Assembly (NCBI GenBank): GCA_012719745.1
Contig: JAAXZS010000189.1
Location: 2,480-26,479 of the forward strand
DNA length: 24,000 nucleotides
Source: Clostridiales bacterium
GTDB lineage: Bacteria > Bacillota > Clostridia > Oscillospirales > Oscillospiraceae
Reading direction: 5' to 3'
Both the position numbers and the translations under genes were made by a program. This document shows positions 15,528 through 16,409 of the stretch, piece after piece; positions within the stretch are counted from its first letter, which is position 1; each line of letters begins with the position of its first letter. Under the pieces are notes generated by a model. That model was not told the DNA's origin and ran no database searches. It saw only the letters and a list, made by a program, of their open reading frames with translations.

Positions 15528-16409
15528 ATGCTGACAGAAAAAGAAAAGCAATCCCGTTTTAATAATATGTTCTTCACGCTGAAGATCATGGCACTGTTTT
15601 TTTGCACAGCGCCACTGTTTCAGTACTATTTTGGGGACAGTGCCAATCATATGCTGGTAAATCTGAACATTGGCATGGTCGTCATTTTTCTCTGTATTGT
15701 AGTCATTGTGGCTTTCATGTGGATTGTGCTCAACTCCCAGTTCCGTCGGATCAAGGCCGGTCACTATCTGGAGATTGCCATTTTTTATGTGGCATGCCTG
15801 TCGGCTATTTTATACAGTGGCTCTTATCGGAGCTATTATAAAGGCATGTTTATCTTCATGATTGTGGTATATACCATGGATATGGGTATCCGCACCGGCT
15901 TTTTCGTAGCCAGTATTAGTGCGCTCACCATTGTGACGCTGGATCTGACACTCTATCACGACGGCGGCGTCAATGCCTATTTTCAGGCGGATCTGGCGCT
16001 TTCAGCCATGTTTTTCGTGGTGGCATGGGTGCTGGGCTTTTATGTCAAGCTGGAAAACGAGCATATTGAAAACCTGAAAAAAACAGCCAATATGGATGGC
16101 CTCACGGGTCTTTACAACCACCGCTATTTTTACGATACCATCACCGCTCTTTTTGAGAACAATACTCAAAAGCCACTGTCTTTTATTATGCTGGATCTGG
16201 ATCATTTTAAGATCTATAATGACATGTTCGGCCATCAAAAGGGCGATGAGGTGCTGCGGCAGGTTTCCCGCCTGATTGGGGAATCGGCCCGGACGGGAGA
16301 TGTGGTATGCCGTTACAACGCAGACCGAGGCCTTGGCTATGGCGGATCGGTTGCGCCAGTCCATCAGCGATTATGCCTTTACGGGACAGGAGATGCTTCC
16401 CAATCATAA
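15528..16409 (+). CDS. Fragment 1 of a disrupted gene: 6-TM sensor domain plus N-terminal two-thirds of a GGDEF domain (frame lost at ~16316)
   Basis: ATG 15528 has an AAGGGGG RBS; the track start 15465 is rejected. About 190 aa carry six hydrophobic helices. Then come [38 protein letters not shown] and GDVVCRY. After RY the frame reads non-homologous [11 protein letters not shown]... to a stop at 16409. Confidence 0.8.
   Translation: [293 protein letters not shown]

Follow-up and report, generated by a model that had tools for sequence, protein, structure and literature searches.

The window, as we call the whole 24,000-nt stretch of DNA analysed here, carries a gene for a membrane-anchored GGDEF/HD-GYP protein, and the reading frame of this agr-linked gene is broken within the GGDEF domain. 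The locus raises the question of what was lost at the break, whether the loss belongs to the organism or to the assembly, and what part the intact protein may play beside the genes of an Agr-type peptide signal.

Two adjacent reading frames are the halves of one protein

The upstream reading frame, ORF1 (Table 1), consists of 263 native residues and a 30-aa out-of-frame tail that ends with the stop codon at 16407-16409. Frame 0 reads ...GDVVCRY, with the tyrosine codon TAC at 16314-16316, before the 30 non-homologous residues begin, and the +1 frame from 16315 reads TTQTEALAMADRLRQ... and runs on through a complete HD-GYP domain to 17139. An earlier note on this DNA had placed the end of the homologous frame at TAC 16314, the stop at 16409 and the start of the +1 frame at ~16315, and on re-reading this description holds. 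The comparator that it had quoted from a 1668-aa ORF of the same window, LLCRMGGDEFAVFIPARL, was also found exactly as given.

A Kyte-Doolittle scan of ORF1 revealed an N-terminal hydrophobic domain of ~180 aa with about six hydrophobic segments; beyond this membrane domain lies the first half of a GGDEF domain, including the RTGD I-site (...RTGDVVCRY). In the Pfam analysis ORF1 matched GGDEF (PF00990) over profile positions 1-82 of 161 (E 2.4e-25), and ORF2, the downstream protein as annotated by NCBI, matched positions 91-160 of GGDEF (E 4.2e-7) and positions 2-170 of 170 of HD_5 (PF13487; E 2.4e-40). The window allele has no contiguous full-length GGDEF domain, the two parts of the profile lying in different frames, and no GG(D/E)EF motif, which falls within the 35 nt that are deleted. 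The RxxD inhibitory site is kept in ORF1 (RTGD-VVCRY), five residues upstream of the GG(D/E)EF position, and is functionless without the catalytic half. The HD-GYP half keeps both of its motifs, LHDIGK (HD) and HHERFDGTGYP.

Together, ORF1 and the +1-frame ORF to 17139 make up a single protein of 548 aa. In its ancestral form it consisted of a multi-pass membrane domain, presumably a sensor, followed by GGDEF (with a GGEEF motif and an RxxD I-site) and then HD-GYP. The window record is a short-read NCBI MAG, and exact look-up found both halves annotated as separate proteins on one 74,181-nt contig, NLU25490.1 under the title 'MAG: diguanylate cyclase [Clostridiales bacterium]' and NLU25491.1 under 'MAG: HD-GYP domain-containing protein'. 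Users of this annotation should be warned that the two entries do not stand for two proteins but for the parts of one broken gene.

Table 1 Coordinates of the broken gene and its neighbours, counted from the first nucleotide of the window
Feature	Position	Strand	Details
DUF5317 membrane protein, first cassette gene	13576..14121	+	
Conserved 184-aa protein, second cassette gene	14147..14701	+	No Pfam/NCBIfam match; rich in hydrophobic stretches
agrB, AgrD-processing membrane peptidase	14643..15275	+	PF04647, E 1.3e-31
agrD, 41-aa autoinducing-peptide precursor	15300..15425	+	...ATSACVWWFYQPEEPESLKNL; TIGR04223, E 2.2e-15, 56 bits vs cutoff 19
ORF1, 5' half of the broken gene	15528..16409	+	ATG 15528; 293 aa; NLU25490.1
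Deletion junction, retained left repeat copy TATGCCGTTAC	16306..16316	+	35 nt missing directly after
Remainder of the ancestral frame (+1 relative to ORF1)	16315..17139	+	Second GGDEF half and intact HD-GYP
ORF2 as annotated by NCBI	16339..17139	+	NLU25491.1, 266 aa; ATG 16339, GAGG 8 nt upstream
Cluster of three window-unique G:C>T:A transversions	17125..17144	+	810 nt downstream of the deletion
GC-rich hairpin, 13-bp stem, between convergent genes	17156..17184	.	Terminator-like; ends the cassette

The lesion is a 35-nt deletion flanked by an imperfect direct repeat

We aligned the window with the DNA of the closest orthologue (L001, from Logan SRR15661557) and obtained a single gap of exactly 35 nt. 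The deleted stretch is TACGGCGGCGAAGAATTTACGGTGATTTATCCCGA, in the context CGT[TACGGCGGCGAAGAATTTACGGTGATTTATCCCGA]TACAACG, and protein alignment with a 548-aa orthologue (P0001) gave the 11 residues lost as GGEEFTVIYPD. These values agree with the earlier prediction of a 3n+2 loss of 30-40 nt and 11-13 missing residues. The same note had described the deletion as taking out the active-site strand; the active-site motif and the next strand are indeed gone, but the motif is GGEEF and not GGDEF. Its view that this is not a homopolymer error is borne out.

An imperfect 11-nt direct repeat lies at the deletion endpoints, with TATGCCGTTAC as the copy that was kept and TATCCCGATAC as the right copy that was lost. 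The two copies match at 9/11 positions, with the last 3 nt exact, and the shared TAC (window 16314-16316) leaves the precise breakpoint ambiguous. Thus ...GCCGTTAC is followed by AACGCAG... in the deletion allele and by GGCGGCGAAGAA... in the intact allele. Since a 9/11 match between a random pair of 11-mers has a probability of ~1e-4 by our binomial estimate, the event was guided by homology.

Close short direct repeats are a classical substrate of slipped-strand deletion. The most likely mechanism would be replication slippage between the two imperfect 11-nt repeats, 35 nt apart, giving a 35-bp loss. The deletion takes away the GGEEF catalytic hairpin together with the next beta-strand and shifts the frame, so that ORF1 ends as a membrane stub of 293 aa containing half of a GGDEF domain and the HD-GYP module is left intact but in another frame; the allele would be carried by this strain or by a sub-population of it. 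As in slipped-strand pseudogenes, one repeat copy and the intervening sequence (35 nt) are lost, the repeats are close, the frame is shifted and the gene is intact in conspecifics. Unlike the usual cases, the repeat is imperfect (9/11) and the event is known here from one MAG. Phase variation was considered and rejected, because 35 nt lost between imperfect repeats cannot be regained.

The gene is intact in conspecific assemblies and in a sister species

A conceptual fusion of both halves (537 aa) was used as the search query. It matched 548-aa proteins, 11 residues longer, at about 97-99% identity (P0001; 97% by BLASTP, 99% by alignment), 79% and 78%, followed by thousands of more distant homologues with identical architecture; two more 548-aa members, P0122 and P0123, belong to the same protein cluster. 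P0001, which represents the ancestral form, has a full GGDEF domain (TIGR00254 positions 1-166 of 168, E 3.4e-49), and GGEEF or GGDEF was present in 6/6 aligned orthologues.

A look-up by the identical 41-aa AgrD gave seven contigs from seven samples. Five of these, conspecific metagenome assemblies at 98.4-99.6% nucleotide identity with the window, cover the deletion site, and it is intact in all of them (L001/L003, L002, L004, L005 and L006). The scan of genome contigs yielded no conspecific genome, its sole match being an Oscillibacter sp. MAG of 80% amino acid identity, and at this sister-species locus (L015) the gene is again a single 548-aa ORF with GGEEF. The break is therefore specific to this genome, and the orthologue alignment that had been proposed earlier both recovered the ancestral sequence and fixed the size of the deletion at 35 nt.

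The deletion allele was then sought elsewhere. Its two products occur in that single NCBI record alone among ~15 billion proteins; no other contig was found to encode the exact ORF1 product; and an 18-mer from the right flank gave six matches on JGI metagenome contigs, all by chance in unrelated sequence. Look-ups through the neighbouring proteins (AgrD, a 403-aa oxidoreductase, DUF5317 and a 1652-aa protein) returned no junction-spanning contig of the window's strain, and they did return further intact alleles and two JGI contigs that are discussed below.

These comparisons bear directly on whether the gene is deliberately split or recoded, that is, a functional two-protein arrangement or a case of programmed +1 frameshifting. 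In favour of this, ORF2 has a possible start of its own (ATG 16339, GAGG 8 nt upstream) and the NCBI annotation lists two proteins. However, every orthologue examined is a single ORF and the two-ORF state exists in one record alone, which disposes of the alternative, raised in the earlier note, that orthologues might uniformly show two ORFs. A frameshifted product would, moreover, still lack GGEEF, and no shift-prone motif was seen by eye in the overlap 16276-16409. We rejected both programmed frameshifting and a conserved split gene because the orthologues are single ORFs, and we consider it extremely improbable that the two-frame state is functional.

Variants were mapped between loci by BLAST-based coordinate mapping. 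Within the species, 23/28 variant sites listed for the gene are synonymous, a count that leaves out five rows: 16309 and 16313 (repeat-alignment artefacts), 17098 (the tip of contig L037) and 17125 and 17132 (both window-unique). The apparent polymorphisms of L005 at 16309 and 16313 come from misalignment of the two repeat copies and are not SNPs. By the synonymous share the gene is under purifying selection within the species, and its body in the window has no unique substitution apart from the deletion. Taken together, these two observations indicate that the break is recent and that the ancestral gene was functional.

Is the deletion carried by the cells or by the assembly?

Two contigs from JGI sample 3300022230, an identifier of which no mention was found in the literature, are essentially of the window's strain. 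The first, L007, equals window 14050-16316 at 100.000%, compared with 98.4-99.2% for other strains that span the whole interval, and it ends exactly on the last base common to both alleles, ...GCCGTTAC. There are three contig ends in total inside the 1.65-kb gene, and we estimate the chance of an end on the exact breakpoint at ~0.2%. As L007 terminates precisely at 16316, the natural reading is that reads diverge at the breakpoint in at least one dataset and that junction-type reads or molecules exist there. The support for each allele at this branch is not readable from the contig end, and L007 may derive from the MAG's own reads.

The second contig, L037, equals window 17096-22487 except at five positions, namely 17098 (at its own tip), 17125, 17132, 17144 and 22373. 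The same-strain JGI sequence breaks off at 16316 and resumes at 17096, and what lies between is missing from the assembly searched. The tip of L037, with its C>A mismatch at 17098, lies 29 nt before a cluster of three transversions that are unique to the window: 17125 G>T (D>Y), 17132 C>A (A>D) and 17144 G>T (intergenic). Every other strain, the near-identical L037 included, has the ancestral bases at these positions, and no template for the three changes was found within the window. Clusters of this sort are typically seen where read support is thin and of low quality; alternatively, it could be one complex mutational event.

Observations of this kind are what would be expected if the deletion were a library or assembly artefact and the organism kept an intact gene. 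The false junction might have come from a template-switch (chimeric) read between the 11-nt near-repeats, or from an overlap-tolerant step that joined two contig tips in a locally thin stretch, the result being carried into the consensus by a permissive assembly. The source is a MAG, the same-strain JGI assembly has a break at either side of 16316-17096, and the C>A at the L037 tip together with three window-only G:C>T:A changes within 20 nt is typical of low-quality single-read support. In addition, a homologue (P0134) on an unrelated contig of 2.1x coverage (L044) runs into argJ right behind the same RY codon, and this GGDEF-ArgJ fusion shows that chimeric joins at the GGCGGCG-rich motif do occur. 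The 'sensitive' mode of MEGAHIT keeps singleton k-mers. This may be relevant should the MAG be part of the PMC7038595 biogas collection, as its accession style might suggest, because the JGI portal supplied some of the reads of that study and MEGAHIT was run on them in 'sensitive' mode.

The junction itself argues against such an artefact, however. Just 3 nt are exactly shared there, so a de Bruijn or k-mer graph would be unable to invent the join from intact reads and would need real junction reads. The 74-kb source contig argues for reasonable overall coverage, in which case the intact path should win over a singleton one. With the cluster and the contig tip set aside, the window differs from L007 and L037 at a single position. 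Over ~13.6 kb compared with L001 there is, besides the deletion, one compensated indel pair only, and apart from these two the window has no indels relative to conspecifics; it is not a generally indel-ridden assembly.

We favour a genuine deletion on the strength of the L007 end, the k-mer argument, the repeat substrate, the clean agreement with relatives and the long source contig. Against it, the window is a MAG, the allele is found in one NCBI record, and the cluster 810 nt downstream looks thinly covered and error-prone. Weighing both sides, we think it probable that a recent, real slipped-strand deletion abolished the cyclase activity and uncoupled the HD-GYP module from its sensor, and we give the artefact an appreciable but clearly smaller chance. 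The existence of the allele in cells, beyond the MAG assembly, is probable but unproven.

A special case of the real deletion, along the lines suggested in the earlier note, would be one that is positively selected, as a signal-blind 'cheater' or a c-di-GMP-resetting allele sweeping the reactor population. The divergence at the junction in a sample with the same strain is compatible with two segregating alleles, two more non-synonymous changes (D>Y and A>D) fall in the same gene of the same lineage, and the gene stands at the end of a conserved cassette for peptide signalling. Set against this, the allele is known from one genome alone; the extra changes lie together within 20 nt, an intergenic site among them, and a single event or error explains this better than repeated selection does; and the receptor role of the protein is itself unproven. 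We therefore regard selection for the deletion as improbable.

Predicted consequences for the protein

Diguanylate cyclases have their catalytic site in the GG(D/E)EF hairpin. Judged by what is left of the reading frames, the window allele would have no diguanylate-cyclase activity, and sensor control over the HD-GYP module would be lost. The candidate start at ATG 16339 appears to be the sole plausible independent start for an HD-GYP fragment. Because the stop codon of ORF1 sits 68 nt downstream of that ATG, coupling or reinitiation there is unlikely, and inside the gene no promoter-like site rose above the chance level. A free 266-aa HD-GYP fragment would thus be made at a low level at most.

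The ancestral protein resembles membrane GGDEF/HD-GYP tandem enzymes (PF00990 and PF13487) in having both domains complete, with HHExxDGxGYP in the latter, whereas the window allele differs from them in lacking GG(D/E)EF and in being split into two frames. No characterised member of the agr-linked subfamily was apparent in the literature search. On its own the deletion matters little, whether it is an ordinary recent loss of function at strain level or an error in the assembly of one MAG.

The gene belongs to a conserved agr cassette

The more valuable lead is the cassette in which the gene lies. The order DUF5317, putative membrane protein of 170-187 aa, AgrB, AgrD and GGDEF-HD-GYP gene was found in 7/7 loci examined, in unrelated flanks, with agrB and agrD adjacent in all seven. 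The loci come from the window's species, Oscillibacter sp. (L015), Sedimentibacter sp. zth1 (L038), Clostridiales bacterium GWF2_36_10 (L039/L040) and Parasporobacterium paucivorans (L041), together with L042 and a contig-end fragment (L043). The earlier description of the gene as agr-linked is thus extended to a five-gene cassette that is conserved across diverse Clostridia. The AgrD peptides of these loci share ...ATSAC[VIFWY][WF][WYF]xYQP(E/V)EPx(S/C)L. As to the first gene of the cassette, a literature search on DUF5317 found nothing specific.

No AgrC/AgrA-type pair (HisKA and HATPase_c, LytTR) was detected among the called genes in the flanks shown for any locus; for the window itself the kinase and LytTR check was made from the ORF list, Pfam having been run on the cassette ORFs alone. 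The sole HATPase_c-family match listed in the flanks is an HSP90 chaperone gene. The agr operon of C. perfringens presumably has two upstream ORFs of unknown function.

The cassette resembles the C. perfringens-type Agr locus in having AgrB and a 41-aa AgrD, with the core C-[VIFLWY]-[WF]-[WYF]-x followed by QPEEP, and no agrCA called in the flanks shown. It differs in that agrD is followed directly by a membrane-anchored GGDEF/HD-GYP enzyme at all loci examined. For C. perfringens a CLWFT(H) peptide has been described, with a thiolactone ring of the five residues CLWFT as the likely AIP and no two-component system encoded in the operon, and the signal has been proposed to act via VirS/VirR (PMC7300355). 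The lack of a known receptor for such orphan AgrBD systems is an acknowledged gap, and in C. difficile the AgrD1 receptor 'remains elusive' (PMC10602386).

A candidate sensor for the AgrD peptide

Synteny, and a multi-pass membrane domain that is shared with histidine kinases, make it plausible that the protein is a receptor for the AgrD peptide of its own cassette. Like AgrC/VirS-type kinases, it has a polytopic N-terminal membrane sensor domain upstream of a cytoplasmic output; unlike them, its predicted output is synthesis and hydrolysis of c-di-GMP and not phosphotransfer, the likeness being one of architecture. The literature search found no paper on a link between AgrBD and GGDEF/HD-GYP proteins or on such a receptor. 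A much bolder proposal would be that the GGDEF/HD-GYP protein is a dedicated sensor of the AgrD thiolactone peptide produced by the four upstream genes and needs no AgrC/AgrA step, and that the deletion is a signal-blind null allele segregating in a digester population; this we consider unlikely.

If the proposal were true, the route from peptide to c-di-GMP would be a new wiring for Agr signalling. A strain with the deletion would be blind to the signal for that output if the protein senses the AgrD peptide, with the peptide itself still producible, and the deletion, if real, would provide a natural null allele for testing the peptide-to-c-di-GMP idea.

The N-terminal membrane domain was also followed beyond the cassette. 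In an exhaustive HMMER search it recurred in fusions, with HisKA-HATPase_c kinases on the one hand and with GGDEF-only proteins on the other, and on account of these different outputs it behaves as a portable sensor module. Two homologues of the domain gave a weak Pfam match to 6TM_PilS.

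Sequence evidence around the deletion

A separate assembly, JGI sample 3300022230, contains two contigs, L007 and L037, of the same strain as the window. L007 matched window 14050-16316 with 100% identity and terminated exactly on the boundary of the 35-nt deletion in the GGDEF/HD-GYP gene. L037 corresponded to window 17096-22487, with its first base 29 nt ahead of a cluster of transversions; its tip carried a mismatched base (C>A), and the segment between the two contigs (16317-17095) was not covered in the copy of this assembly examined.

The cluster comprised three G:C>T:A transversions inside 20 nt (17125, 17132 and 17144). 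The first two fall in the final codons of the broken gene, where they give D>Y and A>D, and the third is intergenic. These transversions were found only in the window, as all of the other strains, including the near-identical contig L037, had G, C and G respectively at these positions. A template for the three changes was sought within the window and none was found. Either the cluster is a multi-nucleotide mutation, or it stems from sparse, low-quality reads. The remaining window-unique substitutions found (12016, 12083, 12266 and 12950) were all transitions, and all were located in the gene for a 1652-aa protein. Over ~13.6 kb of comparison with L001, the closest conspecific contig with an intact gene, the sole indel besides the 35-nt deletion was a compensated pair of 1-nt indels at 14541-14546, inside the 184-aa cassette protein (GAGATCAAT-AAGG vs GAGAT-ATTCAAAG), which altered a few codons and kept the frame.

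A homologue of the broken gene from another organism, P0134, is encoded at 1070-2116 of a low-coverage contig (L044; ENA ERZ14889811, NODE_17241, coverage 2.1x). Right after the RY codon at which the window's gene is also interrupted, P0134 continued in frame into the last 80 aa of ArgJ (TTTCGCTAC|AGCGGCGCC). This GGDEF–ArgJ fusion probably arose as a chimera through microhomology, a warning that false joins are drawn to the GGCGGCG-rich motif.

The agr cassette and its neighbours

The cassette consists, in order, of DUF5317, a 168-187-aa protein without a family match, AgrB, a 41-42-aa AgrD and the membrane-anchored GGDEF/HD-GYP enzyme. All five genes were kept in seven of seven loci from diverse Clostridia, with flanking genes unrelated between loci.

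Coordinates of the five-gene cassette
Locus	Source	Position
Window	Clostridiales bacterium	13576-17139
L015	Oscillibacter sp.	4037-7647
L038	Sedimentibacter sp. zth1	1570-5159
L039	Clostridiales bacterium GWF2_36_10	1583-5141
L041	Parasporobacterium paucivorans	1553-5165
L042		1408-5162
L043	Contig-end fragment	183-2064

No AgrC/AgrA pair was present among the called genes in the displayed flanks of these loci. The cassette is a candidate for a direct route from peptide quorum sensing to c-di-GMP; no description of a DUF5317–AgrB–AgrD–GGDEF/HD-GYP cassette was found in the literature searched.

The multi-pass membrane domain that the broken gene encodes at its N-terminus also occurred in fusions with HisKA–HATPase_c histidine kinases, some of which contain PAS domains, and with GGDEF-only proteins (P0139, P0157, P0159, P0163 and P0170 for the two outputs together).

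Directly adjoining the cassette upstream is a second, very large c-di-GMP protein (window 8280-13238, 1652 aa, REC–GGDEF–EAL–GGDEF–PAS), kept in conspecific contigs and absent from the cassette flanks of distant loci. In Parasporobacterium, a gene for a ComFB-family protein (L041 5228-5782) lies directly downstream of the cassette; ComFB has lately been reported to be a c-di-NMP receptor family (PMC12448109).
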